A DNA stretch of 64,000 nt. Origin: Escherichia coli. Lineage in GTDB: Bacteria; Pseudomonadota; Gammaproteobacteria; Enterobacterales; Enterobacteriaceae. The notes beneath the pieces were generated by a model that made no database searches, had not been told where the DNA came from, and worked only from the letters and a program-made list of their open reading frames with translations. The position numbers and the translations under genes are program-made. Numbering within the stretch: position 1 is the stretch's first letter; each line of letters opens with the position of its first letter. The stretch lies in NCBI RefSeq assembly GCF_011045215.1, contig NZ_CP049201.1; one strand, 5' to 3'. Of this stretch, positions 937 through 54,990 are shown piece by piece.

Positions 937-1145
937 AACTGAAACGTCTCCTTCTCTTCCGGCTCATATGTCCAGTCCGGTAACACAATTTCCACCCCGG
1001 ACGGATACACCGGACCAAGGTCAGCCAGCCCGGGATTGGCTTCCAGTACCGCCGCCAGTGACTGGTTGAGCCCGGCGCTGCCGTAGTGTCTCTGACAGAT
1101 ATCATCCAGCATATCGCCGTCAGTGGTCCGCCAGTTTTTCGCCAT
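927..1145 (-). CDS. Tail protein X (LysM-like, P2 gpX family)
   Basis: 72 aa; ...AVLEANPGLADLGPVYPSGVEIVLPD... resembles P2 gpX; sits between U and D. Confidence 0.65.
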   Translation of the reverse strand: MAKNWRTTDGDMLDDICQRHYGSAGLNQSLAAVLEANPGLADLGPVYPSGVEIVLPDWTYEPEEKETFQLWD

Positions 1146-1614
1146 AGTATTTCAGCTCCAGTGTGAACGTTTTGTTTTTCGGCGCACCGCCGGGAAGAAA
1201 GGACGTGGTGTTATCTGAATAGGCGGTTACAACAAAATACCCCATCACATCCCCCGTCCCGGAAACCAGCAGATGCGGCGCAGGATTTTTATCCACCATC
1301 TGAACCAGCGTATCAAGGGCATCCATCCCCACACCGTCACGAAATCCCGCATGAACCATCCCTTCAAGGCTTATCGTTCTGGCCCCCTTACCGGTATACT
1401 GCAGCAGATCATTTTTTCCGATTAACTGCTGCTCATCCCATCGCCATTCCATGGTGCGCTTCATGGCGTTATACGCCGCTGAATCAATACTGAACTCAAA
1501 CTCACCAAACGACAGCATGACCCGCGAGGCCACATCGGTTAATGAACCAATCCTGTCCCATGCCCTGCGCTCAATCATGTTTGCGCCAAAGCCAACAAAA
1601 TCCACCATCATCAC
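1120..1614 (-). CDS. Tail protein U (P2 gpU family)
   Basis: 164 aa starting MMM..., gpU-like; immediately downstream of tape measure gene. Confidence 0.65.
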   Translation of the reverse strand: MMMVDFVGFGANMIERRAWDRIGSLTDVASRVMLSFGEFEFSIDSAAYNAMKRTMEWRWDEQQLIGKNDLLQYTGKGARTISLEGMVHAGFRDGVGMDALDTLVQMVDKNPAPHLLVSGTGDVMGYFVVTAYSDNTTSFLPGGAPKNKTFTLELKYYGEKLADH

Positions 1615-3266
1615 CCCCAGAATGCATAACTGTCGGTCATGCTGGCCCGCTGGCCAAAATCAATATCACCCAGATTTTTCGTCACCCTGTCTGCCAGCTG
1701 TCCGGCATCCTCGCCGGGCTTCTGGGTGAGGTTAAATTCAGCCCGTATCTGATACGTGGGTTTTACTTCCACCTGGCTGATACTGCCCGGAACGTAGTGA
1801 AGCGCAGAAAGAGGATCCGTTTTTTCCTGCCCCTGTTTTGTAGCGGGTGGGGTGTCATACTTCGCGAGGACATCAAGCGCTTTCTTTTCCCATCCGTCAA
1901 AGTCCGGATCGTCTTCTGGCCCCAGAAAAGGCTCGAGGGACGCCTCAAATTTTTTATCGTCATCACTCAGGAAACCGCGTGTGTCTGTATACGCCTTCAC
2001 AACCTGCTTCGTCAGATCGGGATTTTTTTTAAGCTGATCATCAAACCATTTATCCTGCCCGTTCCTCTTCGCCACTGCCCTTGCCAGCTCTGGCGAGCCT
2101 GTTTTTGCCAGATATTCCAGCACCTCACGCCGGTCACTCCGTGGATCTTCAGCCAGCCCCCACTCGATGGCCTTTTCAGTGAGCCCGGCAATGACTTTTC
2201 CAAAATTCCACGCCCAGGCCGTCACCTTGATCAACATCGGCAGCGCGTCCTCTCTGATAAATGTATTGATTTTTTCCAGCCCGCCGTTTTTAAACCAGTC
2301 CGCCAGGTCGTCCGTGACCTGCTGAATATTCGGTGCCAGCTCTTTCCCCAGCTGTCCACAGATTTCATCAATGGACGAACCCAGAACACCGGTGAGGTTT
2401 GAGACGGCGATATGTCCCCGGACGGCACCATCCGCCCCTTCCCTGGTCACCAGGTTATAGCGCTTCTGCTCCTCAATAAGCTCCCGGTAAGTTTTTCCTG
2501 ACAGACGCATCCAGGTCAGGATCTTATTACCCTCACCACCAAACAATGCATCCGCCATCCCGGCAGCCTTTTGTTCATCCTTCACCTGCAGCAATCGGTC
2601 AAAAAGAAATTCAACCTGCTCCTGGTTGTTTTTTCCCGCCATCGCCCCGGCTTTCAGCCCCAGCGCCCCGAAGACCTGCTGTATGGCACCTTTATCCGAT
2701 GCGCCATTATCATCATCAAAAACCTTGTTGCGGTACTCCTCAAACAGATCCCCGAAGTTTTCCCCGTTCAGCCCCATCTGCTTACCCAGCGAATCCCACG
2801 CTGCATACGTCTCATAATCCACACCGTAACTCCGGGCTATCCCTGCCCGCTCTGCAGTTTCACTGTTCCGGCTAAATGCTGCACCGGCAGCGCCTGCCAG
2901 TGTCAGTCCTGCCCCGACCGAAAGCCCTAACCCCGCTTTCAGAGCGGTCTTTCCACGCCCTTTCCAGCGTTCCAGACGTTCCGCACGTGCCAGCTTACGG
3001 TTAAATTTATCCTGCTCTCCGGTGGCATCATGAATTTTTTTGCCCAGCTTTTCATACTGCTTTCGCAGTTCAGTAATATCCTGCCCTGCCAGTACGCCAG
3101 CCTGAATTTTTCGTTTCAGTACATCCTGCTGGCGAGTCAGGCGAGCCACTTCCTGCGTTGCCCCTGATAATCCGTGCTTCAGTCCATCAACCGATTTTTT
3201 CCACGACGGATCTATCGTGCCGCCGATCCTGATATTCGCTTTCAGGTTATCGCCCACCGTTGCCAT
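1611..3266 (-). CDS. Tail tape measure protein
   Basis: 551 aa, coiled-coil N-terminus and Gly/Ala-rich hydrophobic segment; follows E/E' chaperone gene. Confidence 0.8.
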   Translation of the reverse strand: MATVGDNLKANIRIGGTIDPSWKKSVDGLKHGLSGATQEVARLTRQQDVLKRKIQAGVLAGQDITELRKQYEKLGKKIHDATGEQDKFNRKLARAERLERWKGRGKTALKAGLGLSVGAGLTLAGAAGAAFSRNSETAERAGIARSYGVDYETYAAWDSLGKQMGLNGENFGDLFEEYRNKVFDDDNGASDKGAIQQVFGALGLKAGAMAGKNNQEQVEFLFDRLLQVKDEQKAAGMADALFGGEGNKILTWMRLSGKTYRELIEEQKRYNLVTREGADGAVRGHIAVSNLTGVLGSSIDEICGQLGKELAPNIQQVTDDLADWFKNGGLEKINTFIREDALPMLIKVTAWAWNFGKVIAGLTEKAIEWGLAEDPRSDRREVLEYLAKTGSPELARAVAKRNGQDKWFDDQLKKNPDLTKQVVKAYTDTRGFLSDDDKKFEASLEPFLGPEDDPDFDGWEKKALDVLAKYDTPPATKQGQEKTDPLSALHYVPGSISQVEVKPTYQIRAEFNLTQKPGEDAGQLADRVTKNLGDIDFGQRASMTDSYAFWG

Positions 3267-3427
3267 AACGTCGCCGCCTCTCTTCCGATTCCTCCAGCAT
3301 CATTGACACAAAATCTGCATACGGCAGCGCCATCACATCTCCGGGAGACCACCCGAACCAGGCACCGGCGCGCCGTATCGCTGTCAGGATGCTGTCTTCT
3401 TCCGCCTGACCGGCGGCAGCAAAAAAA
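3247..3427 (-). other. Predicted -1 programmed frameshift extension (E+E')
   Basis: Coding-strand T TTT TTG at 3427-3421; -1 frame stays open 59 codons to a stop at 3249-3247, overlapping the tape measure start. Confidence 0.55.
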
Positions 3428-3686
3428 CATTAAACTGCCGCTCCAGGGCCAGGTAATCACACGCTTCCATATTCATCATGTCCGCCGCATCCATTCCGCA
3501 CAGGCCGGCTATCATATCCAGATCGGCTTCTGCTTCCGGCTTGGTACTCCGGCGATGTAACAGACGATCGCGGACGGTGGGTGCACGCATGGTGACATGC
3601 GAGATTGTCTGACCTGACGCAGTGACATACGGCACGGATAACACAATCTCCACGCTGCTGCAGGGAATACTGTTTATCTCTGGCAT
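3384..3686 (-). CDS. Tail assembly chaperone E (P2 gpE-like)
   Basis: 100 aa ORF between tube and tape measure genes; slippery heptamer near its 3' end. Confidence 0.6.
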   Translation of the reverse strand: MPEINSIPCSSVEIVLSVPYVTASGQTISHVTMRAPTVRDRLLHRRSTKPEAEADLDMIAGLCGMDAADMMNMEACDYLALERQFNVFLLPPVRRKKTAS

Positions 3687-3746
3687 ATTGATTTCCTCTT
3701 AAAAAGAAAAGGCGGCCTGAACCGCCTGAATGACCACTTCTCCGGA

Positions 3747-4265
3747 TCACACCCGGATAATTTTTTTCAGATCCGACAGCACATTCACACCGTTAATGCG
3801 CCGTACAAACTGCTCCGGAATAATGCAGATGGTCTCCAGTCCATCGACAGCCTGGCGGTAATAACTCAGTGACATTTCCACCGACACCGCTGCTTCTGCC
3901 TGCGAGGTGGACGGACGCGCATCCGGCGTGATACTGGTGATCATCCCCTGAAGGGTTTCCACCAGACCGCTTGTTGCACCGCCCACCTGATACGCCTGAC
4001 GGACAACAATTTCTGGCGAATAAATCCCTGCCTGCAATCCCAGCAGAGTCAGTATGGCCACGTCGTATCCGTAAATTTTAAACGAGCAGGTCAGCGCCTC
4101 CATACCGTCATCCACTGACACCGGCGCATCCATCGCACCGGTTTTGATGTCCACCTTCGTGATATTGATGGCCGGAGGCGTGTACTCATGTGCCCCCTGA
4201 AGGCGAATACCACCCGGCAGAAAGAGCGCCCATGCCCGTAGCAGTTTTTTTTCGCACGACATCAT
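3747..4265 (-). CDS. Tail tube protein (P2 FII-like)
   Basis: 172 aa, same length and position as P2 FII downstream of sheath. Confidence 0.75.
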   Translation of the reverse strand: MMSCEKKLLRAWALFLPGGIRLQGAHEYTPPAINITKVDIKTGAMDAPVSVDDGMEALTCSFKIYGYDVAILTLLGLQAGIYSPEIVVRQAYQVGGATSGLVETLQGMITSITPDARPSTSQAEAAVSVEMSLSYYRQAVDGLETICIIPEQFVRRINGVNVLSDLKKIIRV

Positions 4266-5737
4266 ACTGTCAGTTCCTCCTGTGCCAGTTTATTGTTGAT
4301 CATTGTACGCAGCGTCAGGCGTTCCAGTGGTGACTTCGGCCCGAAGTCATAGTCGATATACAACTGCCCGGCAGCCAGGGTTTCTGCTGTATTCAGTTCG
4401 TCGTTCAGCCATGCGCTACCACCGTGGATCGCGCCCAGATTTTTAAGCTGGCGCATGTAGGCATTAATACTGCCGAGAATATCGTCCGCAACATCCCGAT
4501 CAATCGGACGGTCAACATAAGGCAACATGGATTCCTGAACACTGTCTTCAATCACATCAGCCGTACGGCGCACGGACTCAAAGCGCAACTGGCTATGAGA
4601 TGTGCACAGGCGGTTACCCCAGTGTTTAAAACCGTCATGACGAATAATGGTGGAGATGTTTTCCATGTTCAGCAGATTTGCCGTGCAGTTCTGCTCCCCG
4701 AGAATAAATGTATCCACCTGCTCAAGACCGGTGATATTCATCACGTCCTGATTTGATTTGGACCACCACCATCCTTTTTCATAATCAATACGGGCACGCA
4801 GTCCGGCAGCGCGTGCCGAATACGGGCGAAACACTGTTTGTCCGCTGTCATCCGTCACCGACACGCGCGGACGAAGCAGTTCAACACGCCCACCAAATAA
4901 CGTCCGGCGCTGAACCACATCCTGCGGCGTTACCATTGAGGGGGAGTCAATATAGGCAACAGCCCGCAGTTTCGCGGCATACGTTTCCAGCGCCTTTGCC
5001 ACACCATCATCCTCGCTGTAGCCAGTGGCGACAAGAATACGCGGCTGGTAGCCTGTTACGCCTTTGCTCTTCGTCAGAGCTTCCATGGCCTTAATCACTG
5101 CGGCACGCTGTTCTGCCTCCTTCGCTTTCGGTTTGCTTTCCGCACGTACCACAATCACCAGCGCACCGGTCTGGTCAAAAATATCACGCAGGGCAGGATA
5201 CAGCGTTCCGGAAGCCCCCAGCTTTCCGGCCTGCGTGAGTGCCCCCGCCACCACCACCGGCGTATTAACCGGAAATGCCTCATCCTCACCGCCGGACAAC
5301 GTCAGGGTAAAGGGAGATACCACTCCTTCCCCGACAGAATCTGCATTCAGCATGCTGGTATCGGCCATCACCGGTGAATCCTCCAGCGCATTCACAACCT
5401 CCTTCACACGTGACGCAGTGGCATTCGTCTCACCATGTTCATCTGTGCCCAGTGTGATCGTCAGGGTGTTTCCCTCCAGAGCCGCGGTTGTCTCTGCGTT
5501 TTGCTGCGTGCTTCCGTTGGCCACAACTGAAATCTCATTGCCGGACCGCCCGGCTTTTTTCGCTGTAAAATCCAGCGCGGAACTCAACAACCATGATCCG
5601 GCAGTACCGGAAGCACACACACCGCCGGAGGCGTCCGGCGCTGTCCCCACGAGGCCAATCACTGCCGTGGAGACGGTCTGCACGGCCACCGTGCCTGTCG
5701 TCAGTTCAATGGTTTCCACACCATGTAGTCCGGACAT
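4262..5737 (-). CDS. Contractile tail sheath protein (P2 FI-like)
   Basis: N-terminus MSGLHGVETIEL...VSTAVIGLVGTA and C-terminus ...LYIDYDFGP...LTLR resemble P2 FI; ORF track start 5824 is probably an upstream extension. Confidence 0.85.
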   Translation of the reverse strand: MSGLHGVETIELTTGTVAVQTVSTAVIGLVGTAPDASGGVCASGTAGSWLLSSALDFTAKKAGRSGNEISVVANGSTQQNAETTAALEGNTLTITLGTDEHGETNATASRVKEVVNALEDSPVMADTSMLNADSVGEGVVSPFTLTLSGGEDEAFPVNTPVVVAGALTQAGKLGASGTLYPALRDIFDQTGALVIVVRAESKPKAKEAEQRAAVIKAMEALTKSKGVTGYQPRILVATGYSEDDGVAKALETYAAKLRAVAYIDSPSMVTPQDVVQRRTLFGGRVELLRPRVSVTDDSGQTVFRPYSARAAGLRARIDYEKGWWWSKSNQDVMNITGLEQVDTFILGEQNCTANLLNMENISTIIRHDGFKHWGNRLCTSHSQLRFESVRRTADVIEDSVQESMLPYVDRPIDRDVADDILGSINAYMRQLKNLGAIHGGSAWLNDELNTAETLAAGQLYIDYDFGPKSPLERLTLRTMINNKLAQEELTV

Positions 5738-5792
5738 ACATTTCTCCCATAAAAAAACCGCCCCTGAGGCGGTCAGTTGATTTACTTCTTTT

Positions 5793-6338
5793 TCAGGTGT
5801 TTTGTGGAGGTACTGGCCACTCAATGGCGTTATATGAGGTTTTATCAGTGATGGTGCTGAAATCCATCGCCTGCAGCGATTTCGCGTAAATGCGGTACGC
5901 TTTCAGCTTTTCCCTGTCCTCGTCGCTGATTAATCCCAGCAACAGGTCTTTTTCCCATTCGCTGGTCATTATACTGACCTGTTTTAACAGGGCATCACGC
6001 TCGTCTTCCGCTTTAAGTTTGTAGTCGAAAACAAATTCATCATTGCGGTAAAACCAGTAGCCTGATGCTTCAATGCGACGATTAGCGGTAATATCCGGCA
6101 ACTCAATCACGCTTTTATTTTCCGGGCAGATTGAGGTGATGTCTTTTCCGACCCAGACCACTTCGCCAGTTTCAACATAAATAACTTTCAGGGTGTCTGG
6201 TAGAAATTTTTCCTGGGCTTCGTGCCATTCCTGTCCATCATCTGAGAACAGCCACAATAAAAATTTATGCTGTCGCGCCAGCTGGTATTGCTCAATTGTT
6301 TTAGGGTTTTGTACCGTAATATTTTTTAAGTGCATCAT
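5793..6338 (-). CDS. Tail fiber assembly protein (Tfa/gpG-like)
   Basis: 181 aa directly downstream of tail fiber gene; C-terminal ...IEWPVPP typical of Tfa chaperones. Confidence 0.6.
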   Translation of the reverse strand: MMHLKNITVQNPKTIEQYQLARQHKFLLWLFSDDGQEWHEAQEKFLPDTLKVIYVETGEVVWVGKDITSICPENKSVIELPDITANRRIEASGYWFYRNDEFVFDYKLKAEDERDALLKQVSIMTSEWEKDLLLGLISDEDREKLKAYRIYAKSLQAMDFSTITDKTSYNAIEWPVPPQNT

Positions 6339-6340
6339 GA

Positions 6341-7714
6341 TTACAAACTCGCTACATTTCTCCAGACGCCATTAATCAGAACCTGCACCGGGCGTGCATT
6401 GGCCCAGTCCACACTTTCACCGCCATCAACACCACTCAGTAAATGACCTGATGGCGCATTTCCCCCGCGTCCAATACCAATGGCGCTTCCCAGACGTACA
6501 TCCTGCACGCCGCCTGTTTTGGTCTGATAGCGGGCATCAAAGTTTCCGTAGTTTGATGGAGTTATCTGCCCATTTACAGCGAATGTGACGCTACCGTCTG
6601 TATTTCTCTGACTGTAGAAATGCCAGCCGGAATCATCACCAAGCTCTGCAACTACAGGTCTGGATGGATTACCCCATAAATTAAACCCTACGTTCTTCGT
6701 GGAGCTGTTGGAGCTGGATAGCGTGAATTTTTTACTATCCCCGGCCTGAACGTTTTTAAAAGCAATAGCAACTCCATTCTGAAAGCGAAATACGCGCTGA
6801 TTATTAGCATAAACATCCAGAATGCCGTCGCCGTTTTGTTTTATACCTGTATCGTTATCACCGAGAGTAATAGAATTACCACCCAATGCGTTATTCGTAC
6901 CAAGCGCCAGCCCACCATCAATTTTTGCACCGTGGCTGACTGATATAGCGCCTGTTCTCAGATTTATAGCAAATGGCCTTAATGGGCCGATATCACCGTT
7001 TTCGCCCCGTCCTTCAGACGTCGGGATAAAATGAAGATATTCTTCCGAACGACGAAAAATCAGGCCAAAAGCATCGTCGAAAATTCGCAGCGCATTCACC
7101 GTGCCAATTTTCAGCTCCCCGGTCATGGTGTCACCACCGCGCTGAACGGCATTTTTCGCTTTATCCACCGTAGGTTTTAATCCGAGGTTATCAACCGCTT
7201 CATCTTTATCTTCCACATCGGCAAGATTCTCGCCGATGCGCAGATAGCGTTTATCTCCGGCCTCCTGCGTGATAATCGCCCTGTGAGGATCCACCTCCAG
7301 CGTCACACTCTGTGTATGTGTAAGCGCAAGAACCAGTGTCAGTATCACCTCCTTGATAACGGAATCCGTCTGTGCCGGTAAATACGTATCCGGATAACGA
7401 CCATACGCAATCAGCGTGCCACGGCGACTCACCATCCCCAGCTCGCGCAGGGTCTTTCCCGGGTATGACTGACAGTCAATGACAATATCCCCGCTGATAA
7501 AACCTTCGTCCACCACGCCGCCTGAAAAGGGCTCCCGACCAAACTCACCACACAACATGACCATCGCCGCCATCTCATCCGGCGTTGAGGGCAGTGTTTT
7601 CCCGCCCCCGTCACCAATCATCACCTGACTGATGGTCACCACCTCACCGGCATGATATGCAGCTTCAATTTCGGCTGCCCCGGCTGTTGTCAAAACTAGT
7701 CCATGCATACCCAC
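6341..7714 (-). CDS. Tail fiber protein (P2 gpH-like N-terminus)
   Basis: 457 aa; conserved gpH-type N-terminal domain, Gly/Asn-rich distal part. Confidence 0.75.
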   Translation of the reverse strand: MGMHGLVLTTAGAAEIEAAYHAGEVVTISQVMIGDGGGKTLPSTPDEMAAMVMLCGEFGREPFSGGVVDEGFISGDIVIDCQSYPGKTLRELGMVSRRGTLIAYGRYPDTYLPAQTDSVIKEVILTLVLALTHTQSVTLEVDPHRAIITQEAGDKRYLRIGENLADVEDKDEAVDNLGLKPTVDKAKNAVQRGGDTMTGELKIGTVNALRIFDDAFGLIFRRSEEYLHFIPTSEGRGENGDIGPLRPFAINLRTGAISVSHGAKIDGGLALGTNNALGGNSITLGDNDTGIKQNGDGILDVYANNQRVFRFQNGVAIAFKNVQAGDSKKFTLSSSNSSTKNVGFNLWGNPSRPVVAELGDDSGWHFYSQRNTDGSVTFAVNGQITPSNYGNFDARYQTKTGGVQDVRLGSAIGIGRGGNAPSGHLLSGVDGGESVDWANARPVQVLINGVWRNVASL

Positions 7715-7717
7715 AAC

Positions 7718-8299
7718 TCACTCCACCCACTCATCCCGGATACCCCGGGTATCATCAGCACTGATACCACTGACTTTTTCTGTTGCCATCACATAACCGT
7801 AACCAAAAATACGCCCCCTGCTGTTTCCGTAAAGATGAACACTGAACCAGCTGCGCAGATTTTTGGCACGGAGCACCGCATGCTTCAGATCCTGATAGTC
7901 ATTCATCTGTACCGGTAAATCCTTCTGCTCCACATTCAACCGGAAGGTATAGGGTTCACCTGGTGGCGTCTGCTCATACCACTCCACAATCTGTGACCGG
8001 AACGGGCTGTCTGTCAGTGATTCGTTCAGAGCGGCTTTTGTTCCCCGGTGACGATGGATATAAGCGGCACGTTTTATCGCCGCTCTTTTTTCCGCCTCCG
8101 TCCAGTGTTCATTCCAGGCGTCCACCGACATTTCCCAGGCCAGCCATGGCAGCAATTCCGTCGGACATAAATCGGGATTTTTTACATAGCGGATCAGACA
8201 GACCGCGATTTCCGCCAGCATATCACCGGCGGTACTGTCCACCACCCGCTCTGCCCGGCTGGCGCTGACAGGAAGTATGCTTCTGATGATGTCATTCAT
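7718..8299 (-). CDS. Baseplate/tail formation protein I
   Basis: 193 aa between J and tail fiber, as in P2. Confidence 0.65.
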   Translation of the reverse strand: MNDIIRSILPVSASRAERVVDSTAGDMLAEIAVCLIRYVKNPDLCPTELLPWLAWEMSVDAWNEHWTEAEKRAAIKRAAYIHRHRGTKAALNESLTDSPFRSQIVEWYEQTPPGEPYTFRLNVEQKDLPVQMNDYQDLKHAVLRAKNLRSWFSVHLYGNSRGRIFGYGYVMATEKVSGISADDTRGIRDEWVE

Positions 8300-9206
8300 C
8301 GGTTGCCTCCACCTTGTTCAGTGTGACTGAGCGACACCATGGAGCCTGTCCCATCGCCGGAACAATATCACTGGCCGGCGATTTCAGTGCCACCGTAATC
8401 ACCCCCGTCTGATGCAGGGCTCCGTCCATACCGGAGCAGGACGCCACAGAACCAATCCGGTGAACACTGTCAGTGTATGTCTGCAGCGCCTGACGGGCAT
8501 TTTTCATCACCAGTTCACCATCCAGCCCGTAGGGAATATGAATATCTGCAACCACATCGTAGAGAATAATTTCTGCCGCACGGACACTGACAAAATCCGT
8601 CAGAGGTCGAATTTCATCATCATTGACTGACGCTGCCACCTTATCCAGCAGGGGTTGCGATGCCGTACCGTTTCCGGTTCGCGATAACACATAAAGAAAA
8701 ACACGCCCTTCCTGTGAATGCGTTTCCGGCCCGTAGGCTTTCACATCCAGCACATCAGGATCAGCACTCTGTGCAAAATAATGGTAAGCATTTTTCGCAC
8801 CGGCTGTACTGAGTCGCGCCCACGACAACTGAATACGCTCACGAAAGGCATCATCCCCTTCATACACCGCCGGTGTGGGCGGGATAGTGCTGTCATCTGC
8901 CGGAGTAATCACCAGACGTTGCACCTGAAAATTCGCACCAATCTGATCCAGATCGTTCCTGCGGGCACTGGCAAGCAGTACAGCCCGGACTGCATCATTG
9001 ACCTGCTGGCGCATCAGCGCCACCCGAAAAGCAAGCGCCTCCGCCCATTTATACGCCGGATCTGATTCCACCAGGGCCGAAAACAACGTGTCCAGTTCCT
9101 GATATTTCGCCACTATCTGAGTGACCAGCACAGCGGTGTCCGGCACCTCCACCGCATCCGGTACAGGTATCGCGGACAAATCAATAATGGCCTGAGACGT
9201 TGTCAA
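8292..9206 (-). CDS. Baseplate assembly protein J
   Basis: 304 aa, gpJ-like, between W and I. Confidence 0.8.
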   Translation of the reverse strand: MTTSQAIIDLSAIPVPDAVEVPDTAVLVTQIVAKYQELDTLFSALVESDPAYKWAEALAFRVALMRQQVNDAVRAVLLASARRNDLDQIGANFQVQRLVITPADDSTIPPTPAVYEGDDAFRERIQLSWARLSTAGAKNAYHYFAQSADPDVLDVKAYGPETHSQEGRVFLYVLSRTGNGTASQPLLDKVAASVNDDEIRPLTDFVSVRAAEIILYDVVADIHIPYGLDGELVMKNARQALQTYTDSVHRIGSVASCSGMDGALHQTGVITVALKSPASDIVPAMGQAPWCRSVTLNKVEATDE

Positions 9207-9537
9207 TTCTGATTTCCTCCAGACGAATTGTTTCCTGTGTTTCGTTATTCACGCCCAAAAGCGTCAACATGACATTTCCCTCACCGCCGAAGCTCACCTC
9301 CACACGGCGGATCGTCAGTCTCGGTTCCCAGCGTTCAAGAGCGGTAACCGTCTCACGGACAATCCTCACCCGTGTGAAATCATCCTGCGGGTTATCAAGC
9401 AGACTGAACAACCTGCTGCCGTATTCCCTGAGAAGTACCCGGCTGCCGACTGGTGTTGACAAAATATCGGTGACGGACTGACGCAGATGTTCGTTACCGT
9501 GCAGATATCTGCCGGTGGCGGAATCAATACCAATCAT
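9181..9537 (-). CDS. Baseplate protein W (GPW/gp25 family)
   Basis: about 118 aa from MIGIDSATGRY...; between V and J. Confidence 0.7.
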   Translation of the reverse strand: MIGIDSATGRYLHGNEHLRQSVTDILSTPVGSRVLLREYGSRLFSLLDNPQDDFTRVRIVRETVTALERWEPRLTIRRVEVSFGGEGNVMLTLLGVNNETQETIRLEEIRIDNVSGHY

Positions 9538-9571
9538 GAAATTTTTCCGAAAAAAAACGCCGGTGCGGCGT

Positions 9572-10195
9572 TCACATTTCCTGGTTAGGTTTACGGGTGG
9601 TTCCCCCGCTGTCGCCAGGGTGATCATGAGTATTATAAATTTCGCGAATTTTACTCATGCTGCCGGTTTTATCGGTGATCTCCTGTGAGGCACCGATATT
9701 GCCCAGAACCTGCGTATCGGCATTAATCTTCGTTTCTCCCTGCACAGTCAGGGTATCCGTGATTTCCACCGGACCGTCCAGCGTTCCCCTGCCGGTGATT
9801 TTATAGCTGCCGCTTTCAGCCAGCGTGATGGACAGGGCATTGGCTTTACGGTCGTAACGGATTTCCGTTCCGGTATCAAACAAAATAACATGCTCGTGTT
9901 CACTGCCCGCCGGTACAGGAATGGCGTCAATATTCGCCCCCGGATACACACGACCGTTACGCAGATCGCCCGCCTCCGATATCACCGTGACCGCATCTCC
10001 TGGTGCCGGGTAATTACTGACCTGCATGTAACGCCCGGACTGCATCTGAATCCAGGGCAACGGCGGCGAAAGCACATCTCCGATATCCACCCGAACCATC
10101 ACCGGGTTACCCGGGATCACCTCTTCCACCACGCCGCGACGGATCATGTCCGCCACCCTGCGGCGTAACTCTGCCACTTCATCCGCCAGACTCAT
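9572..10195 (-). CDS. Baseplate spike/assembly protein V
   Basis: Start MSLADEVAELRRRVADMIRRG... resembles P2 gpV N-terminus; ORF track 5' extension to 10354 unlikely to be coding. Confidence 0.75.
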   Translation of the reverse strand: MSLADEVAELRRRVADMIRRGVVEEVIPGNPVMVRVDIGDVLSPPLPWIQMQSGRYMQVSNYPAPGDAVTVISEAGDLRNGRVYPGANIDAIPVPAGSEHEHVILFDTGTEIRYDRKANALSITLAESGSYKITGRGTLDGPVEITDTLTVQGETKINADTQVLGNIGASQEITDKTGSMSKIREIYNTHDHPGDSGGTTRKPNQEM

Positions 10196-10711
10196 CGCCG
10201 GTGCCCTCCGCTTTCCAGATAAGACGATAATCCTGCACATGCTTTTTACCGGTTTCCGGTACTTTACCCAGCCAGACTTCCTGTAACGGCACACCTGCCG
10301 GAGCCGCAAACGGATCTTCGCCGACCGGAATGTCCTGTTCAAAAGAGAAAGCAAACAAACAAGATAATAAGTTGAATTTAAAGGAATAAAAAAGGCATCA
10401 TTTTTGCTTTTGGTACAAATTCTAGTCCGTATAAACGCGGAAAAATCCGCTAAATTAAGATAAAAAAGATGCTTAGATAGTTACTATGTTTAGCTTCATG
10501 GCTACGGGGAGTAAGTTTGCTCTTTGCTTAATCTCGGTTATGGAAATCCCCATATCGGCATCATGCCCACCAGCGTGACGCATTTTTTTTAATTTCGCGG
10601 GTATAAAAATTTGACGAGGCGGGCGGTCCCATAAGCAATGGGGTGTAGGGATTCCGATCCCCCTGGGGGGGGTATTAAACACCCACCCTATTTAAATACC
10701 GTCTTTTTTGT

Positions 10712-46053: not shown

Positions 46054-46479
46054 TTAATGCACAGCCAGAGTGTTTCCTGCCGGGCCACCACGATTCATCT
46101 GATCGAACAGAACGATCGCTGATGCAACGAAATCATCAATATCTTTCACCAGCCGTTCCTTCGTCTCTACCAACTCCCGAAAATAAGCGGAACTGTGGCT
46201 GCGCATTCGGGCCACCAGCGGAGGCGGCATTGCTTTTTCGATCGCTGGTAACAACGCCTGAATTTTTTTAACCGCATCAGGGGTGTCTTTATCCAGCCAA
46301 CGGAAAATTTTCTGGGTATTACGAGCCAGCGCTTCCGGATGCCTGTCGTCATATAGCTCCGGGAACGTCATACCCAGCTCAAAATAAGCCTGGGTTATTT
46401 CAGCTGCCGGAACTTTTTCACCGTCCGGATGCGCCCAGGCATTCATCGCCATACGGATGTGTTCATGCTTGATTTTCAT
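46054..46479 (-). CDS. YdaT-like protein (Rac-type)
   Basis: 141 aa MKIKHEHIRMAMNAWAHPDGEK...; follows Cro-like gene as ydaT follows ydaS in Rac (from memory). Confidence 0.5.
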   Translation of the reverse strand: MKIKHEHIRMAMNAWAHPDGEKVPAAEITQAYFELGMTFPELYDDRHPEALARNTQKIFRWLDKDTPDAVKKIQALLPAIEKAMPPPLVARMRSHSSAYFRELVETKERLVKDIDDFVASAIVLFDQMNRGGPAGNTLAVH

Positions 46480-46738
46480 GAATCAACTCCGGTGTATTTG
46501 GTGTGTTAGCCTTATCTCCAGCAGGCAACCCGTCAGTTGGATTCGGGTATAAATCTGGTCGCAATTCATGAGGAGTCACCCCAGTTGCAATATAAATTTG
46601 ACGAACCCGTTCCCCCGTCGGAACTCGACCATTGTATTCATTTGCCCATTTGTGTATTTGAGATGGCCAAGCCCCTATTGCACGCCCTAGTGGACGAATA
46701 CCACCAGCAATCTTTATTGCTTTGTCCAATGCTGTCAT
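46463..46738 (-). CDS. YdaS/Cro-like HTH regulator
   Basis: 91 aa, first gene of rightward early operon, divergent from repressor gene. Confidence 0.55.
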   Translation of the reverse strand: MTALDKAIKIAGGIRPLGRAIGAWPSQIHKWANEYNGRVPTGERVRQIYIATGVTPHELRPDLYPNPTDGLPAGDKANTPNTPELIHENQA

Positions 46739-46841: not shown

Positions 46842-47231
46842 ATGGACATGAGAAAAAAGCAATACGACACCCCGCTAGCAGAAAGGTTAGATGCGATCTC
46901 TCAACAGCATCATTTAAGTGGTTCAGATTTAGCGCGTATCGCTGGTGTAGGTCGTTCATCAGTCAACGCATGGAAAAAAAGAGGAACAATCAGTAAAGAT
47001 TCCGCAGCCAAAATTGCAGAAGCCACAAACGTTTCCCTTTCTTGGCTACTGACAGGGAAAGAAGAGACAAATAGAGAAGCGCTTGATGATGACGAGAAGG
47101 CCCTGCTTGATGTTTACAGAAACCTGCCACCTGTAGAACGTAGAAATATGCTGGCAGCTTTTCAAATGCGACTTCAAAAACTGACCGAATTTTACTCAGA
47201 ATACGTCGACCCAATAACACGACAAAAATAA
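46842..47231 (+). CDS. Prophage repressor, HTH (RacR-like; no S24 peptidase domain)
   Basis: 129 aa; N-terminal HTH ...LSGSDLARIAGVGRSSVNAWKK... Confidence 0.6.
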   Translation: MDMRKKQYDTPLAERLDAISQQHHLSGSDLARIAGVGRSSVNAWKKRGTISKDSAAKIAEATNVSLSWLLTGKEETNREALDDDEKALLDVYRNLPPVERRNMLAAFQMRLQKLTEFYSEYVDPITRQK

Positions 47232-48102: not shown

Positions 48103-48741
48103 ATGATGGAATTTAAAGATTTACCGCTATCAATCCAGGGGATTGCAGCACACACACTACGTCAACGTCTGAACGAAGCTATGGCTGAATCTGCAACGAA
48201 AGAAACCATTGATAACATGGCTCGTAATGTGCACGATGCGTTTACCGGATTGTATTTCTGTGCGTCTGTAAATAAACACGACCCAGAGAGTGTGGCAAAG
48301 AAAATTGCAGAAACGACAGTGCAAAACATCAATACGAAACCAACCGAAGACGAAATTGACCAGCCTGCCAGTGAACAAAAGAAAGAAAAATCGCCATATG
48401 CGGGGAACATGTTTGTTTATGACAAACTTATCCGAATTCGTGGCGAAATTCCGACTGAATACCTGGCAAAAATTCACCAGGCATTACTTAAAAATCTGGA
48501 AACGGAAGTATTTGATGGCAACACCAACGGCTCCTTCGTGGTGTCAGCCCTCACAAAAGAATGGGATACAGATAATCGCCGGAATGTTGCTACATGGTTA
48601 TTCAGCAACAAAGCTGCTGCCCTGGAAGCTGCGGCCTGTATTTGCGACCTGCTAAGGACAGACCGCAAATACAACCTGGATGTGTATAGCTATATTTATG
48701 CTGAACACTATCCACTCTGGATTGACTGGTTTAAAGGGTAA
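48103..48741 (+). CDS. Hypothetical protein
   Basis: 212 aa ORF in leftward early region. Confidence 0.45.
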   Translation: MMEFKDLPLSIQGIAAHTLRQRLNEAMAESATKETIDNMARNVHDAFTGLYFCASVNKHDPESVAKKIAETTVQNINTKPTEDEIDQPASEQKKEKSPYAGNMFVYDKLIRIRGEIPTEYLAKIHQALLKNLETEVFDGNTNGSFVVSALTKEWDTDNRRNVATWLFSNKAAALEAAACICDLLRTDRKYNLDVYSYIYAEHYPLWIDWFKG

Positions 48742-49983
48742 CACCTGCGGGACCGAGCCGACCAGCACCACGATTATTTTATCCTCCATTAAGGGGTGAA
48801 TTAAAAATGGAGACCAACACGCTGCTACGTGTGGTCGTGCGCCGGACACGGATAACCTTCCGGCATGCTCTTTAACAATCTGGATATCCACAACAGCAAT
48901 AACCTACGGATTGCTGCTCAATGCTCTACCTATCTCTTCTTCAGATGGGGGCGGTATATAGTCATCATTGCGTTCAAATTTAAAGCGCGAATCACATTTC
49001 AGGCATTTAGAAATATGGAACTTATCATGCTCACCAATTTCAACAGGTTGAAGTATTGCTATTACACCATGCTGATAGCAATTGGGACAGGCATAGTGAA
49101 AACATGTGTCTTCTTCGTCGAGGCTGTTCCTGAAAGCATAGACAAAATGCCCAAAACCAGTTTTGTGTATCGTATAGCATTCAAGTTTTCGATTACGCTC
49201 GTCAATTTCATGACATTTTTACTTAAGCAAGAGTATTTCCTCGTACTGAAGCGCGAGCGTTTTCGCTAGCTCTGCGTTCTGTATTTGTAAGTCTGCCAGT
49301 TGGCGACGCATTTCGTAGACAGCCTTTTCACGTTCAGATTGGCTTTTTGCATCAAGTATTACCTGTAATAAATCAATCGAGACTTTAATTGCCGTTATTG
49401 ATGAAGTTATTCCAGATAGCATTCTTAACTCTCTTTGTTGTTGGGGTATCCGGATTATACAAAATTCTTGTTGTTGGGGAACAACAGGAACCACCTCGCC
49501 TGATGTGGTTAAAAGCAGGCACACAACACGAAAGCGCACGGCGAAGGTTTCTTTTCCTTAGAAGGCTTGTCGTTAGATTTCTTCGGCCGTGCGCTTCCGG
49601 TTGTGGCAATCCGCGAAATGGCGCGGCGGTAAGTATGGCGGGGTTATCCTTACCCCCACTGGTAGCACCGGGTTGTCAGGTTGACCATACGCTTAAGTGA
49701 CAACCCCGCTACAACATCTCCATGTTGAGGCTTGTGTGAGACCTTTGGCGGCATCAGTTTAATTGCTGGCTGATGTCCGCCCTTTTTAAAGTGAATTTTG
49801 TGATGTGGTGAATGCGGCTAAGCGCACGCGGAACAGTTAAAAGACCATTTGTTCTCCGTATCAATACTTATGGGTAGGTACTTGCAGGCGGGTCCCTGTA
49901 TTCCGGCGTTAATTGTTAACTGGTTAACGTCACCTGGAGGCACCAGGCACCGCATCACAAAATTCATTGTTGAGGACGCGATA

Positions 49984-50172
49984 ATGGAAACGTTATTACT
50001 CAATTCCACTACGCCTGAGACTCGTTTTGAAATTGGCGTTATCACTGGCGATAAAAACTTTATTGAGGATGCCATTAATCAGATAAAGCATGAGCCAGAT
50101 TCATCAAATGAGATATGCATTGCTTCAATGCTGGCCCGTTTACGCCCGACGCAAAAAGGATGCTGGCAATGA
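49984..50172 (+). CDS. Hypothetical protein
   Basis: About 62 aa from METLLLNSTTPE... Confidence 0.35.
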   Translation: METLLLNSTTPETRFEIGVITGDKNFIEDAINQIKHEPDSSNEICIASMLARLRPTQKGCWQ

Positions 50173-50372
50173 ATACCACATTTGCACTTGTTCTGACGGT
50201 TTTTCTTGTTTCCGGTGAACCAGTTGACATGGTTATTGGCGTATACAGCTCAATGAAAGAATGCATGGCTGCCGCAGATGAACAGAAAATTCCCGGTAAC
50301 TGTTATCCGGTCGATAAAGTTATTCACCAGGATAATAACGAAATCCCGGCAGGACTTAAAACAGCGCCGTAA
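50169..50372 (+). CDS. Hypothetical small secreted/membrane protein
   Basis: About 67 aa from MNTTFALVLTVFLVSG... signal-peptide-like. Confidence 0.4.
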   Translation: MNTTFALVLTVFLVSGEPVDMVIGVYSSMKECMAAADEQKIPGNCYPVDKVIHQDNNEIPAGLKTAP

Positions 50373-50449: not shown

Positions 50450-52885
50450 ATGAGCACTGATAAAGAAGAATTTGCATTATATTGTGAAGCAAAAAATGAC
50501 AAAGTCAGAAAACGCCTTGGAATTAAAGGTGGTTTTTACTGGACTACAGCAAAAAAATTATCTGTTGCCATCTCCCGCTGCATTACCGCAATGGATGACA
50601 ACGATTATGATGAAGACGACTTTAAAAAACCCGTCCGCGTCCATTTACCCGTTGTGAATGACCTTCCACCTGAAGGCGTGTTTGATACTGAATTCTGTAA
50701 CCGTTACGAAAAAGGCGGGGAAGATGGCATCACAATGGTATTTATCGCGCCCTCACCCTCTGCGCAGGACAAACCAGCCAACATTGACAATACCAACGTC
50801 AACGGCGAAGACATGACTGAGATTGAGGAGAACATGCTCCTGCCGGTTTCAGGTCAGATTCTGCCTGTTCGATGGCTGGCACAGCACGGCAGCAAAAAAC
50901 CGATCACACACGTTTCGCGGGACGAACTGCGCGCATTACATAACGCACAGGATGAAAAACTTCCCGCCGTTACCGCGCTGGCTATCTCAAATAAAGCAGC
51001 GCAACTCGAACCGCTGGAGATTCGCGATCTCCACAAACTGGTGCGAGACACTGACAAAGTTTTCCCCGCCCCCGTAAATTCGGACCTGGGACTGATAACC
51101 TCTTTTATCGAAGCATACCTAGACGCCGACTACACCGATCGCGGTCTGCTGACAAAAGAGTGGATGAAAGGAAATCGTGTTTCGCGTATCACCCGTACGG
51201 CTTCCGGTGCAAATGCCGGTGGCGGGAACAAAACCGATCGCAATCCGAATTTAGTACACACCTTCGATACGCTGGATGTGGAGATTGCAACAGCCACACT
51301 TCCGATGGATTTTAATATTTATGAAATTCCGGGCAGCGTTTATCGTCGCGCAAAAGAAATCGTCCTGAAAAGAGAAAGTCCGTTCAAAGAATGGTCCGCA
51401 GCACTTCGCGCAACCCCGGGTATTCTGGATTATTCCCGCGCCGCTATTTTTGCACTTATCCGGAGCGCTCACCCTGAGTTTTATCACTACCCGGGACGCC
51501 TTCAGGGGTATATCAACGCCCACTTAACGGAGACTGATCACGAGAACCCCAGCAAGGAAACTCTCACTGCTGCACGACATACACCGGAAAAAGACATCCT
51601 GGAAGAAGTTAACCGCGAACTGGCTGCTGAACGCGAAACAGAAGAAGAAAAAAATAATGAGGAAAAATCACAACCGTCTGACGCAATGGCAGATGAACAG
51701 GCAACGACTGAAGCAATGGGACAGGATACAACTGAATATCGCCAGGACACACAATCGCTGGATACTCAGGCACAGATAAATCCGGTTAATCAGGTAAAAG
51801 TTACCGCTGACGAAGTAAACAAAATTATGCAGGCAGCCAATATCAACCAGCCTGATGCCGACAAAATACTGGCAGTCCATCGCGGTGAATTCGTTGACGG
51901 AATTAGCGACCCGAATGATCCGAAATGGGTTAAGGGGATTGAAACCCGCGATTCTGTGAACCAGAACCAGCCCGAATCGGAACAAAACAGCCAAAATGCG
52001 TTACAAAACGAGCCAGAAACGAAACAGCCTGAACCAGAAGAGCAACAAGAACCGGAAAAAGTCTGCACCGCCTGCGGTCAGACCGGCGGCGGCAACTGTC
52101 CTGACTGTGGCGCGGTGATGGGCGACGCAACATACCAGGAAACATTCGATGAAAAAAATCAGGCTGAAGTTCAGGAAGATGATCCGGAGGAAATGGAAGG
52201 CGCTGAACATCCGAACAATGAGAATGCTGGTAACGATCAGTATCACGCCAGCGATAGTGAAACTGGCGAGGCGACAGATCCCTTAATTAATGTGAACGGT
52301 CATCACGAAATCACATCCACCAGCAGTACGTGTGACCATCTAATGATCGACCTTGAAACCATGGGAAAAAATCCTGATGCCCCGATTATCTCAATAGGTG
52401 CAATATTTTTCGATCCGCAAACCGGAGATATGGGACCGGAATTTAGTAAGACTATAGATCTGGAAACAGCTGGCGGAGTCATTGATCGTGACACCATTAA
52501 ATGGTGGCTTAAGCAATCACGCGAGGCGCAATCTGCCATTCTGACCGATGAAATCCCGTTAGATGATGCACTGTTGCAATTGCGGGAATTTATCGACGAA
52601 AACTCCGGCGAATTTTTTGTTCGTGTCTGGGGAAATGGAGCCAGCTTCGACAACGTAATTTTACGCCGTTCATATGAACGGCAGGGGATCCCCTGCCCGT
52701 GGCGTTACTACAACGATCGCGATGTACGCACAATTCTTGAACTGGGAAAAGCCATAGACTTCGATGCCAGAACGGCTATTCCATTCGAAGGCGTACCCCA
52801 CAATGCGCTGGACGATGCCCGTCACCAGGCAAAACAAGTTTCAGCTATCTGGCAAAACCTGATCCCGAGTCAGGCTGATTTTTAA
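50450..52885 (+). CDS. RecE-like protein with C-terminal DEDDh (DnaQ-type) 3'-5' exonuclease domain
   Basis: 811 aa; N-terminal two-thirds resemble Rac RecE non-catalytic region (recollection); C-terminus has IDLETMG, GNGASFDN, HNALDDARH exonuclease motifs. Confidence 0.65.
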   Translation: MSTDKEEFALYCEAKNDKVRKRLGIKGGFYWTTAKKLSVAISRCITAMDDNDYDEDDFKKPVRVHLPVVNDLPPEGVFDTEFCNRYEKGGEDGITMVFIAPSPSAQDKPANIDNTNVNGEDMTEIEENMLLPVSGQILPVRWLAQHGSKKPITHVSRDELRALHNAQDEKLPAVTALAISNKAAQLEPLEIRDLHKLVRDTDKVFPAPVNSDLGLITSFIEAYLDADYTDRGLLTKEWMKGNRVSRITRTASGANAGGGNKTDRNPNLVHTFDTLDVEIATATLPMDFNIYEIPGSVYRRAKEIVLKRESPFKEWSAALRATPGILDYSRAAIFALIRSAHPEFYHYPGRLQGYINAHLTETDHENPSKETLTAARHTPEKDILEEVNRELAAERETEEEKNNEEKSQPSDAMADEQATTEAMGQDTTEYRQDTQSLDTQAQINPVNQVKVTADEVNKIMQAANINQPDADKILAVHRGEFVDGISDPNDPKWVKGIETRDSVNQNQPESEQNSQNALQNEPETKQPEPEEQQEPEKVCTACGQTGGGNCPDCGAVMGDATYQETFDEKNQAEVQEDDPEEMEGAEHPNNENAGNDQYHASDSETGEATDPLINVNGHHEITSTSSTCDHLMIDLETMGKNPDAPIISIGAIFFDPQTGDMGPEFSKTIDLETAGGVIDRDTIKWWLKQSREAQSAILTDEIPLDDALLQLREFIDENSGEFFVRVWGNGASFDNVILRRSYERQGIPCPWRYYNDRDVRTILELGKAIDFDARTAIPFEGVPHNALDDARHQAKQVSAIWQNLIPSQADF

Positions 52886-52949
52886 TGTTCAACCCCGGTC
52901 GTCGCCCACTAGCTATAGTGGTGGCGACCATGATTAGCGAACGACGCTC

Positions 52950-53198
52950 ATGGCAAGACTTATTCTGCTCACTGAGTGGGCAAAAGAGGAATTCAGCGAT
53001 CCGGTCCCTACTCCGGGCACGTTAAGTAAATACGCTAAAGCCGGAATGATATTTCCTCTCCCCAAAAAAGTTGGAAGACACTGGCGAGTGGATCCACGAG
53101 CTCGCTTTGTCGGAATGGTAAACAAGCCGGAGGTGATCGCCACAGATCACCCTGCTTTGAAGAGGATACTGGAAGATGGCGCGCCCGCGAAAATATAA
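52950..53198 (+). CDS. Excisionase-like protein
   Basis: 82 aa directly upstream of and overlapping int. Confidence 0.6.
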   Translation: MARLILLTEWAKEEFSDPVPTPGTLSKYAKAGMIFPLPKKVGRHWRVDPRARFVGMVNKPEVIATDHPALKRILEDGAPAKI

Positions 53199-54306
53199 AA
53201 CCGAAGTTCCGGGACTATCTCCGTATTTTGACAAAAGAAATAACAAAGTTTACTGGCGTTACAGGCATCCCATAACAGGCAAAAATCACGGTCTCGGCAG
53301 TATTGACCAGAAACTGGCAGAAACTATTGCAGCAGAAGCGAACAGCCGTCTTGCCAGGCAGCAAATGGAACAAATGCTCAGTCTGCAGGAGAAAATTATT
53401 AATGATACCGGCGGTTCATCAACCGTTTCCATTTTTCTGAATAATTACAGAAAAATTCAACAGGAAAGATATGAAAACGGAGAGATCAAACTCAACACGC
53501 TGAAACAAAAAGCGGCCCCTCTCAGGGTATTTGATGAACGTTTTGGCACCAGACCGTTAGATGCCATAACTGTAAAAGATGTGGTATCGGTGCTGGAAGA
53601 GTACAAGGCCAGAGGACATAACAGAATGGGGCAAATTTTCAGGAAGGTACTGATCGATGTTTTCCGGGAAGCTCAGCAAACAGGCGATGTTCCGCCAGGC
53701 TTTAACCCTGCAGAATCGGCAAAAAAACCGCAGGTGCGGATATCAAGACAGCGACTGACTTTTGATGAGTGGATGATGATTTATAACGCAGCGGAAAAGG
53801 ATGGTTACTTTTTACAGCGCGGCATGCTGCTGGCACTGATGACAGGCCAGCGCCTTTCAGATATTTGCAAAATGCAATTTTCGGATATCCGGGATGGTTA
53901 TCTTCATGTCGAACAGCAAAAAACAGGAACCCGGATTGCCATCCCTCTTGCTCTGCGTTGCAATAAATTAAATCTCACCCTGGATGATGTGGTGTCATCC
54001 TGTCGCGATTGCGTTCTTAGTCCGTGGCTATTGCACCACCATCATGCGAAAGGGACAGCCAAGCGCGGCGGGATGGTTAAGCCAGCAACGTTAACAGTTG
54101 CATTTAAAAAAGCGCGGGATTCTGTGGATTACAACTGGCGTGCTAATGGCACCCCACCCTCTTTCCATGAGCAGAGATCTTTATCAGAGCGATTGTTCAG
54201 AGAGCAGGGAATTGATACCCAAATTTTGCTGGGTCATTCGAATCAAAAAATGACCGATATTTACAACGATGCACGCGGCAAGGAGTGGAAAAAACTGGTC
54301 ATTTGA
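53176..54306 (+). CDS. Tyrosine integrase, lambda type
   Basis: 376 aa; MARPRKYKTEVPGLSPY... N-terminal arm-binding domain; catalytic ...LLGHSNQKMTDIY...; last prophage gene before ompW. Confidence 0.9.
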   Translation: MARPRKYKTEVPGLSPYFDKRNNKVYWRYRHPITGKNHGLGSIDQKLAETIAAEANSRLARQQMEQMLSLQEKIINDTGGSSTVSIFLNNYRKIQQERYENGEIKLNTLKQKAAPLRVFDERFGTRPLDAITVKDVVSVLEEYKARGHNRMGQIFRKVLIDVFREAQQTGDVPPGFNPAESAKKPQVRISRQRLTFDEWMMIYNAAEKDGYFLQRGMLLALMTGQRLSDICKMQFSDIRDGYLHVEQQKTGTRIAIPLALRCNKLNLTLDDVVSSCRDCVLSPWLLHHHHAKGTAKRGGMVKPATLTVAFKKARDSVDYNWRANGTPPSFHEQRSLSERLFREQGIDTQILLGHSNQKMTDIYNDARGKEWKKLVI

Positions 54307-54351: not shown

Positions 54352-54990
54352 TTAAAAGCGGTACCCGGCAGAGAACATAAACACCCACGGATCCAGTCGT
54401 ACCGCGTCTTTCACGGGTGTTCCGTTAGATTTATAGCTGGCTGTGGTATCGATATCCATGTACCACACTGACATGTTAACCAACCAGTCACGGTTAATCA
54501 GATAATCAACCCCCACCTGCCCGGCAGCTCCCCAGGAATCTTTCAGACTGAGATCGGAAAGCCCCGCCTCTTTGCCATGATCGTTAAATCCATTATCAAA
54601 GAAGGTGGTGTAGTTAATACCTGCCCCAACATAAGGACGGAATTTGCTGCTGGCATCACCAAAATACCACTGCGCCATCAGTGTTGGCGGCAGATGATGA
54701 ACGGTTGCAATATCGCCGGTCGCCCGGGTGCCGATTTTATGGCGGAACGGCGTCGCTGCCAGTAATTCCACACCAATGTTGTCGGTCGCCATATAAGTAA
54801 ACGTCAGGCCCAGTTGAGTGTTATTGGTCACGCTGAATCCACCCAGACTTCCTAACGTACCACCAGCACCTTCTGTTGGACGTACGGTTGCAGAACCTGC
54901 ACGCATAAAAAATTCGCCTGCTTCATGCGCAAAGGCACTGCCAGAGAGAAGAGTTGTTACTGCCAAAGCCGCCACTGTTAACTTTTTCAT
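54352..54990 (-). CDS. ompW: Outer membrane protein W
   Basis: 212 aa; MKKLTVAALAVTTLLSGSAFA signal peptide; ...SAGYRF C-terminus. Confidence 0.95.
   Translation of the reverse strand: MKKLTVAALAVTTLLSGSAFAHEAGEFFMRAGSATVRPTEGAGGTLGSLGGFSVTNNTQLGLTFTYMATDNIGVELLAATPFRHKIGTRATGDIATVHHLPPTLMAQWYFGDASSKFRPYVGAGINYTTFFDNGFNDHGKEAGLSDLSLKDSWGAAGQVGVDYLINRDWLVNMSVWYMDIDTTASYKSNGTPVKDAVRLDPWVFMFSAGYRF

Follow-up and report, generated by a model that had tools for sequence, protein, structure and literature searches.

A RecE-type prophage protein of Escherichia coli with a DexA-like DEDDh exonuclease domain in place of the RecE nuclease

The RecE protein of the Rac prophage of Escherichia coli K-12 (exonuclease VIII, b1350) ends in a PD-(D/E)XK nuclease, recognized by Pfam as DUF3799 at residues 615–850, which acts as a 5′-3′ exonuclease on double-stranded DNA (dsDNA), and the gene is followed by that of RecT. 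What the long N-terminal part of RecE does has been an open question since the protein was first truncated for recombineering. Exonuclease A (DexA) of the lytic phage T4 is a free-standing enzyme of 227 residues. Its structure (PDB 8KEL and 8KEN) was solved by Kang et al. (NAR 2025, PMC12153337), who reported that DexA scavenges host DNA. They also reported that EcD, a homologue from E. coli, degrades T4 DNA, leaves unmodified dsDNA undigested and protects cells against T4, and they named this strategy HREX. In a survey of 314 lambdoid phages, Zheng et al. (Genome Res 2025, PMC12315714) described DnaQ-like 3′-5′ nucleases in or near recombination (Rec) modules, ‘usually encoded very near int’, as well as ‘RecE-2’ proteins without a nuclease. 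Here, we describe a gene in a stretch of 64,000 nt from E. coli (RefSeq assembly GCF_011045215.1, contig NZ_CP049201.1), the product of which joins a RecE-type front part to a DexA-like exonuclease domain. The whole stretch is referred to as the window, and all coordinates are positions in it, on the plus strand unless stated otherwise.

The open reading frame (ORF) extends from an ATG at 50450 to a stop codon ending at 52885, with a Shine-Dalgarno sequence, GAGG, 7 nt 5′ of the ATG, and encodes 811 residues. NCBI holds a 100% identical protein, ‘exonuclease [Escherichia coli]’ (P0121). The protein consists of a RecE-type N-terminal scaffold, an acidic linker containing a zinc (Zn) ribbon, and a DEDDh exonuclease domain. 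Pfam Exonuc_VIII (PF06630) matched residues 57–189 with an E-value of 1.6e-27, and BLASTP aligned residues 58–613 with residues 50–591 of K-12 RecE at 56% identity, in agreement with the first-pass annotation of this DNA, which had likened the front of the protein to the non-catalytic part of Rac RecE. The first 405 residues (50450–51664) are folded, with an alpha/beta sub-domain at residues ~1–100 and two helical sub-domains at residues 120–250 and 270–405. The acidic linker that follows (residues 406–629, 51665–52336) is common to RecE and mostly disordered, as judged by an AlphaFold2 model built from 150 diverse sequences, in which the pLDDT is below 50 over residues 406–453 and 495–624. 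Two elements of this linker, the motif GISDPNDPKW (residues 483–492, 51896–51925) and a four-cysteine Zn ribbon, CTACGQTGGGNCPDCG (residues 539–554, 52064–52111), are present in K-12 RecE and also in the Klebsiella protein P0099.

The similarity to RecE does not continue into the nuclease. Both blastn and BLASTP place the end of the homology to K-12 recE at 52287/52288, after residue 613 (RecE residue 591), which is ~24 residues ahead of the start of DUF3799 in RecE. Pfam analysis of the 811-residue protein showed the DUF3799/PD-(D/E)XK domain to be absent, and tblastn with RecE residues 588–866 gave no match across the 64-kb window. Since the homology ends just short of DUF3799, the replacement falls at a domain boundary: the PD-(D/E)XK nuclease of RecE has been swapped for a DEDDh exonuclease exactly there. 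A domain swap had been proposed from the first reading of the sequence, and the alignment with K-12 RecE bears it out, as the C-terminus is not the canonical RecE nuclease. Several phage records and databases call such proteins ‘exodeoxyribonuclease VIII’, which would make this gene a canonical RecE encoding a 5′-3′ recombination nuclease, and the N-terminal 600 residues do match the NCBIfam RecE equivalog NF007259. However, the score of 887 bits is below the cutoff of 1269, only positions 1–602 of the 877 in the model are aligned, and RecT is missing along with the RecE nuclease domain. We consider the canonical reading refuted.

The domain found in its place (residues 630–801, 52337–52852) belongs to the DexA/Rv2179c-like family of DEDDh 3′-5′ exonucleases. 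It matched Pfam PF16473 (Rv2179c-like) with 222.7 bits against a cutoff of 27 (E-value 3.5e-66), over profile positions 2–177 of 177. The residues of the Exo I (DxE), Exo II (D) and Exo III (Hx4D) motifs are all present, as D634 (codon at 52349–52351), E636 (52355–52357), D734 (52649–52651), H784 (52799–52801) and D789 (52814–52816), and the catalytic site is intact. All five are invariant in an alignment that also includes T4 DexA, one EcD-like protein and six enterobacterial homologues that are free-standing. Their T4 DexA counterparts are D7, E9, D119, H186 and D191 in the numbering of PMC12153337, where a figure legend gives E12 for the residue aligned as E9. In a phmmer search against the PDB, the sole matches were 8KEL and 8KEN, both T4 DexA. 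The AlphaFold2 model has a pLDDT mostly above 90 for residues 630–805, and Foldseek against the PDB returned T4 DexA (8kel) as the best match (E-value 2e-9), followed by RNase T and REXO2/Orn. The top 50 Foldseek matches were all DEDD exonucleases (DexA, RNase T, REXO2/Orn, ERI-1/3′hExo, ERI3 and CRN-4). The Exo I/II/III motifs that the first-pass annotation had read in the C-terminal part, in preference to the RecE nuclease fold, are thus confirmed by profile, alignment and structure comparison. The sequence identity to T4 DexA is only ~25%, and DexA, unlike the C-terminal domain of this 811-residue prophage protein, has extra loops and stands alone. A 3′-5′ polarity and DNA as the substrate are predicted for the domain. 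Literature searches for PF16473, for Rv2179c together with phage, and for ydfE, a K-12 pseudogene discussed below, found no functional information.

In a Rac/Qin-like lambdoid prophage inserted at ompW, the exonuclease gene is the final cargo gene of the early-left operon; recE occupies the same operon position in Rac, upstream of xis and int. An excisionase gene (xis, 52950–53198; Pfam Exc, phrog_629) starts 64 nt past the exonuclease stop codon, and a tyrosine integrase gene follows (int, 53176–54306), an arrangement like that annotated in RM11911 and in the PPompW phages. No partner of the kind that accompanies RecE was found. When K-12 RecT and the lambda proteins Bet, Exo and Gam were used as tblastn queries, no match was obtained anywhere in the 64-kb window, and the same queries gave none in nine other loci with a DEDDh-type gene. 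The controls gave the expected matches, locus L039 for the RecE nuclease domain and locus L041 for Bet, Exo and Gam. Pfam and PHROGs, applied to all plausible early-left ORFs and to the replication and nin ORFs, detected no RecT, Red-beta, Erf, Rad52-like or Sak-type protein, and no homologue of lambda Exo, Gam or the RecE nuclease. The first-pass annotation was therefore correct that xis and int directly follow the gene and that a recombineering partner is absent.

The same holds for the related loci. A Rec-module gene is lacking in 10 of 10 DEDDh-type loci (the window and the nine others), and in every locus that extends past the gene (RM11911, NS-NP030, mEp460_ev081, Tritos, vB_EcoS-640R1, three metagenomic contigs, RM13745 and PPompW_EH1846) the DEDDh-type gene runs directly into xis and int, or into int. 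The copy in RM13745 is split and that in PPompW_EH1846 is frameshifted. In contrast, a canonical RecE relative with DUF3799 has RecT and then Lar downstream, and a relative consisting of the scaffold only has Gam, Bet and a lambda-Exo/YqaJ nuclease in that position.

One published class of lambdoid phages shows this combination of genes. In the class with Tritos as its prototype (Table 1 of PMC12315714), a nuclease is present while the annealase (single-strand annealing protein, SAP), the single-stranded DNA-binding protein (SSB) and an anti-RecBCD function are absent, and 7–21 Chi sites are found on the top strand, mostly clustered at the right end. The prophage described here fits the Tritos Rec-module class, having the nuclease and lacking SAP and anti-RecBCD, with SSB judged only by Pfam and PHROGs on the scanned ORFs. 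Positions 1–54320 of the window contain 19 Chi sites (GCTGGTGG), where ~1 is expected from base composition, although the resulting density is approximate. Twelve are on the minus strand of the window, which corresponds to the conventional top strand of the phage because the head and replication genes lie on it, and seven are on the other strand. Between 31 and 54 kb, the right-hand 23 kb of the virion map, the strand on which Chi is active for RecBCD entering at the right cos end has seven Chi sites and the opposite strand two. As far as the early-left region of Tritos was examined, its only annotated nuclease is the homologue of the window protein, and this homologue is presumably the nuclease scored for the class. 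Abundant Chi sites combined with the absence of an annealase and of Gam is the pattern of lambdoid phages that use host RecBCD, Chi and RecA for recombination-dependent growth.

Our preferred reading, to which we assign roughly an even chance (~0.5), is that the protein is a 3′-end-trimming accessory exonuclease of the early-left operon in a phage reliant on the host RecBCD-Chi-RecA pathway. It would be a modular nuclease, in which the RecE-type scaffold of ~600 residues (three folded sub-domains, acidic linker, GISDPNDPKW motif and Zn ribbon) tethers a DexA-family DEDDh domain. A two-metal site formed by D634, E636, D734, H784 and D789 would remove nucleotides from 3′ ends, a polarity opposite to that of RecE. 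The enzyme would probably be made together with the products of dicB, ydfD, xis and int once the CI/DicA-type repressor is lifted, and it could then trim 3′ ends or single-stranded DNA, of phage or host, in a manner comparable to the action of T4 DexA in double-strand-break repair and DNA scavenging. Because the predicted polarity is opposite to that of RecE, the protein would not be one half of a RecET-type exonuclease/annealase pair. It was suggested at first reading that the role differs from that of RecE, and this is a reasonable inference, since 3′-5′ digestion cannot yield the 3′ tails that an annealase uses.

Several points weigh against such a role. Neither the polarity nor the nature of the substrate, DNA or RNA, is readable from sequence, and the Pfam family of the domain is named after an exoribonuclease. 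No recognizable fold was found for the N-terminal scaffold, and a target is not indicated by it. The gene must be dispensable for maintenance of the lysogen, because some copies are frameshifted or split. The Chi density is approximate because the left end of the prophage was not located within the window and contractile-tail genes occupy the first 10 kb, and part of the Chi excess (10–19 kb) may lie in other DNA. Lastly, 3′-5′ single-strand exonucleases usually inhibit RecA-dependent recombination (PMC12315714), so how one would help RecBCD-dependent growth is not obvious.

The main rival explanation is an exclusion or defence nuclease resembling HREX/EcD, which would digest the modified DNA (5-hydroxymethylcytosine type, 5hmC) of superinfecting T-even-like phages while sparing unmodified host DNA. 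The precedent is the digestion of T4 DNA and the protection of cells by EcD (PMC12153337), a bacterial or prophage-borne DexA homologue from the same Pfam family with an intact active site. We made the comparison with EcD-like ORFs from six viral contigs, recovered by the published forward primer, rather than with EcD itself (HAK9828821.1), and these ORFs are ~38% identical to the domain. The reverse primer matched one unrelated-looking locus, in which no DexA-like ORF was found. Prophages often carry defence genes, which also favours this explanation. However, the EcD-like ORFs are free-standing, ~190 residues long, and part of a small integrative element, a different kind of element, without the RecE scaffold. 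The two DexA residues proposed to read 5hmC are apparently not both kept, as W152 aligns with Y754 and D169 with A768; the aromatic residue is thus retained and the aspartate lost, with the caveat that the alignment of this loop is uncertain. The gene lies between dicB/ydfD and xis/int, within an early-left block that is repressed, rather than where a moron would be expected, which speaks against its expression in lysogens. A promoter of its own was not detected either: a scan for promoters and terminators found sites no more numerous than in shuffled sequence, and no convincing promoter directly upstream of the exonuclease gene. PADLOC gives no match for the protein. The EcD claim also rests on one plasmid-expression study, and the published construct, which starts MIDTET, apparently lacks the first ~7 residues of the natural ORF, MRIMNHLMIDTET. 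We regard a defence function for the window protein as unlikely. One EcD-like DexA homologue adjoins a gene for a Dam-like methyltransferase (L020:4465–6269, minus strand), the C-terminus of which bears a Zn-ribbon motif, CDACGHHGGGYCPDCGPVTGDATY, the same as that of RecE and the window protein.

Another possibility is counter-defence or nucleotide salvage during lytic growth, in which the enzyme would destroy host single-stranded DNA or oligonucleotides (for example, retron/DRT-type cDNA) or nicked host DNA, thereby either overcoming immunity or supplying phage replication. The scavenging of host DNA by T4 DexA (PMC12153337) is in line with this. So is the occurrence of a free-standing DexA-like domain in 685 phage records, which span lytic as well as temperate phages and many hosts, and so is the probable expression of the gene early after induction. 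This explanation leaves the retention of the RecE scaffold, linker and Zn ribbon under purifying selection unaccounted for, and, to our knowledge, temperate lambdoid phages do not degrade host DNA. We think it quite improbable.

The first-pass annotation implied that the architecture was rare, and this did not hold. Matches spanning 80% or more of the gene are found in 1273 of 5426 complete E. coli genomes, where PGAP names the product ‘exonuclease’ or ‘3′-5′ exonuclease’, and over 100 additional clusters (≥91% identity) have the same pair of Pfam domains. Among 59 representatives at 50% identity (length at least 440 residues, query included), Exonuc_VIII was found in 49, the Rv2179c-like domain in 20, DUF3799 in 14 and RecT in 2. 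The form that ends in a DEDDh domain is no less diversified than canonical RecE. The architecture is thus not new, being abundant, already annotated as a 3′-5′ exonuclease, and found in a class described in 2025 (PMC12315714).

Both halves of the protein are under purifying selection, with dN/dS values of 0.08–0.20 for the C-terminal domain and 0.13, in a close comparison, for the N-terminal domain. These low values argue against a dead relic, that is, a recE gene deprived of its nuclease and of RecT by illegitimate recombination and now useless. Some copies are indeed frameshifted, split or truncated, many database entries are partial, and the Rac-type recET genes of K-12 are silent, all of which would be expected of decay. 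In addition to the dN/dS values, the invariant catalytic residues, the intact, full-length ORFs of 1273 complete genomes and of viable phages (Tritos, mEp460_ev081), and the presence of the fusion in 20 distinct clusters at 50% identity speak against it, and we strongly disfavour this explanation.

The closest relatives show that the gene is internally mosaic. Compared with the proteins of Tritos, mEp460_ev081 and NS-NP030, the DEDDh domain is 92–94% identical and the linker 66–71% identical, while identity over the first 405 residues is just 22–24% (window 50450–51664 against L045:3641–4855 for Tritos, and against loci L033 and L003). Tritos and mEp460_ev081 otherwise resemble the prophage in the window in their gene order, the lack of annealase and anti-RecBCD, and their abundant Chi sites. 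Pfam does not recognize the front half of the Tritos protein as Exonuc_VIII. The vB_EcoS-640R1 protein has a Rac-like front half at 90% identity, and the window protein also bears a front half like that of Rac RecE.

The RecE scaffold is itself a module, which can stand alone or be combined with an annealase or with a nuclease of either polarity, as is evident from the existence of DEDDh, DUF3799, RecT-fused and scaffold-only forms. The RecT-fused form is a natural fusion of 703 residues (P0248), in which Exonuc_VIII at residues 2–178 is joined to a RecT annealase domain at residues 528–678 with no nuclease domain. Proteins of the ‘RecE-2’ kind (for example P0244) share the RecE-type N-terminal region and the operon position with the window protein; they differ in having no nuclease domain and in being followed by a complete Gam-Bet-Exo module. 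In one locus, the gene for a scaffold-only relative of 683 residues lies directly upstream of such a lambda-type module (L041:5001–8819), so the scaffold coexists there with an independent recombination system. Given this modularity, the N-terminal ~600 residues of RecE may be a nuclease-agnostic targeting scaffold, and the DEDDh version a one-protein function that cooperates with or reprograms RecBCD-Chi and replaces the exonuclease/annealase pair. We put this forward tentatively, as a possible but doubtful reading. If true, it would add a previously unrecognized means by which a temperate phage handles DNA ends.

At the prophage end, ompW (54352–54990, minus strand) stands beside int, and the chromosomal genes beyond int are ompW, yciC, yciB, yciA and tonB; the insertion site is the same as for the published PPompW prophages. 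Directly upstream of the exonuclease gene are a dicB-like gene and a DUF1482 (ydfD-like) gene (49849–50372; Pfam DicB and DUF1482), and the block order dicB, ydfD, exonuclease, xis, int is kept in Tritos, mEp460_ev081, vB_EcoS-640R1 and the loci L036 and L037. A CI/RacR/DicA-type repressor gene (46842–47231; Pfam Phage_CI_repr and HTH_3) heads the early-left region, with ydaS/ydaT-like genes (46054–46738, minus strand), identified from the annotation of related prophages, divergent from it. Between the repressor gene and the dicB homologue are a DUF1391 gene and several small plus-strand ORFs without an assigned function. Among the early-left ORFs is one of 212 residues (48103–48741) that matches PHROG 2151, for which no function is assigned, with an E-value of 6e-111, and that has no Pfam or PADLOC match. 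An ORF of 106 residues is in the opposite orientation (49219–49539, minus strand) in an otherwise gene-poor stretch of 1.1 kb, which has the appearance of a moron-type insertion.

Between 45000 and 55500, Rfam called neither DicF nor any other RNA family at gathering thresholds. Positions 49733–49968 have ~75% DNA identity to the kilS small RNA and kilR upstream region of K-12 Rac (L002:8250–8466), and a terminator-like hairpin is found at 49750–49777; Tritos has DicF annotated at the equivalent place, where Rfam calls none in the window. The 64-nt gap between the exonuclease gene and xis contains an imperfect inverted repeat, GGTCGTCGCCCAC...GTGGTGGCGACC, at 52888–52930, which does not resemble an intrinsic terminator, as no T-run follows it. 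At the other end of the window, genes for a contractile tail, baseplate and tail sheath lie at positions 1–10350, in contrast to the lambdoid head, terminase and early regions. Given contractile-tail genes at the left end of an otherwise lambdoid element, the prophage appears either to carry a myovirus-type tail or to adjoin a second element. An attL site was not found in the window, and the left prophage boundary was not located there. In K-12 Qin, the slot after dicB-ydfD and before int is taken by the pseudogene ydfE (L044:5079–5999). The idea that ydfE is a cut-down copy of the exonuclease gene was ruled out, as BLASTP detected no similarity between them, and this slot is therefore used by at least two unrelated gene families.

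Since the architecture was already on record, the residual interest lies in the modular RecE scaffold and in the role of a very common nuclease. Many records still name the protein ‘exodeoxyribonuclease VIII’, from which the wrong polarity and an impossible recombineering function would be predicted. With the long N-terminal part of RecE seen as a conserved module, carried on nucleases of opposite polarity, on RecT, or on nothing, its function becomes approachable through natural variants. The DEDDh-ended protein is, in turn, a very common candidate for DNA-end handling in Chi-rich lambdoid phages that have no Rec module.

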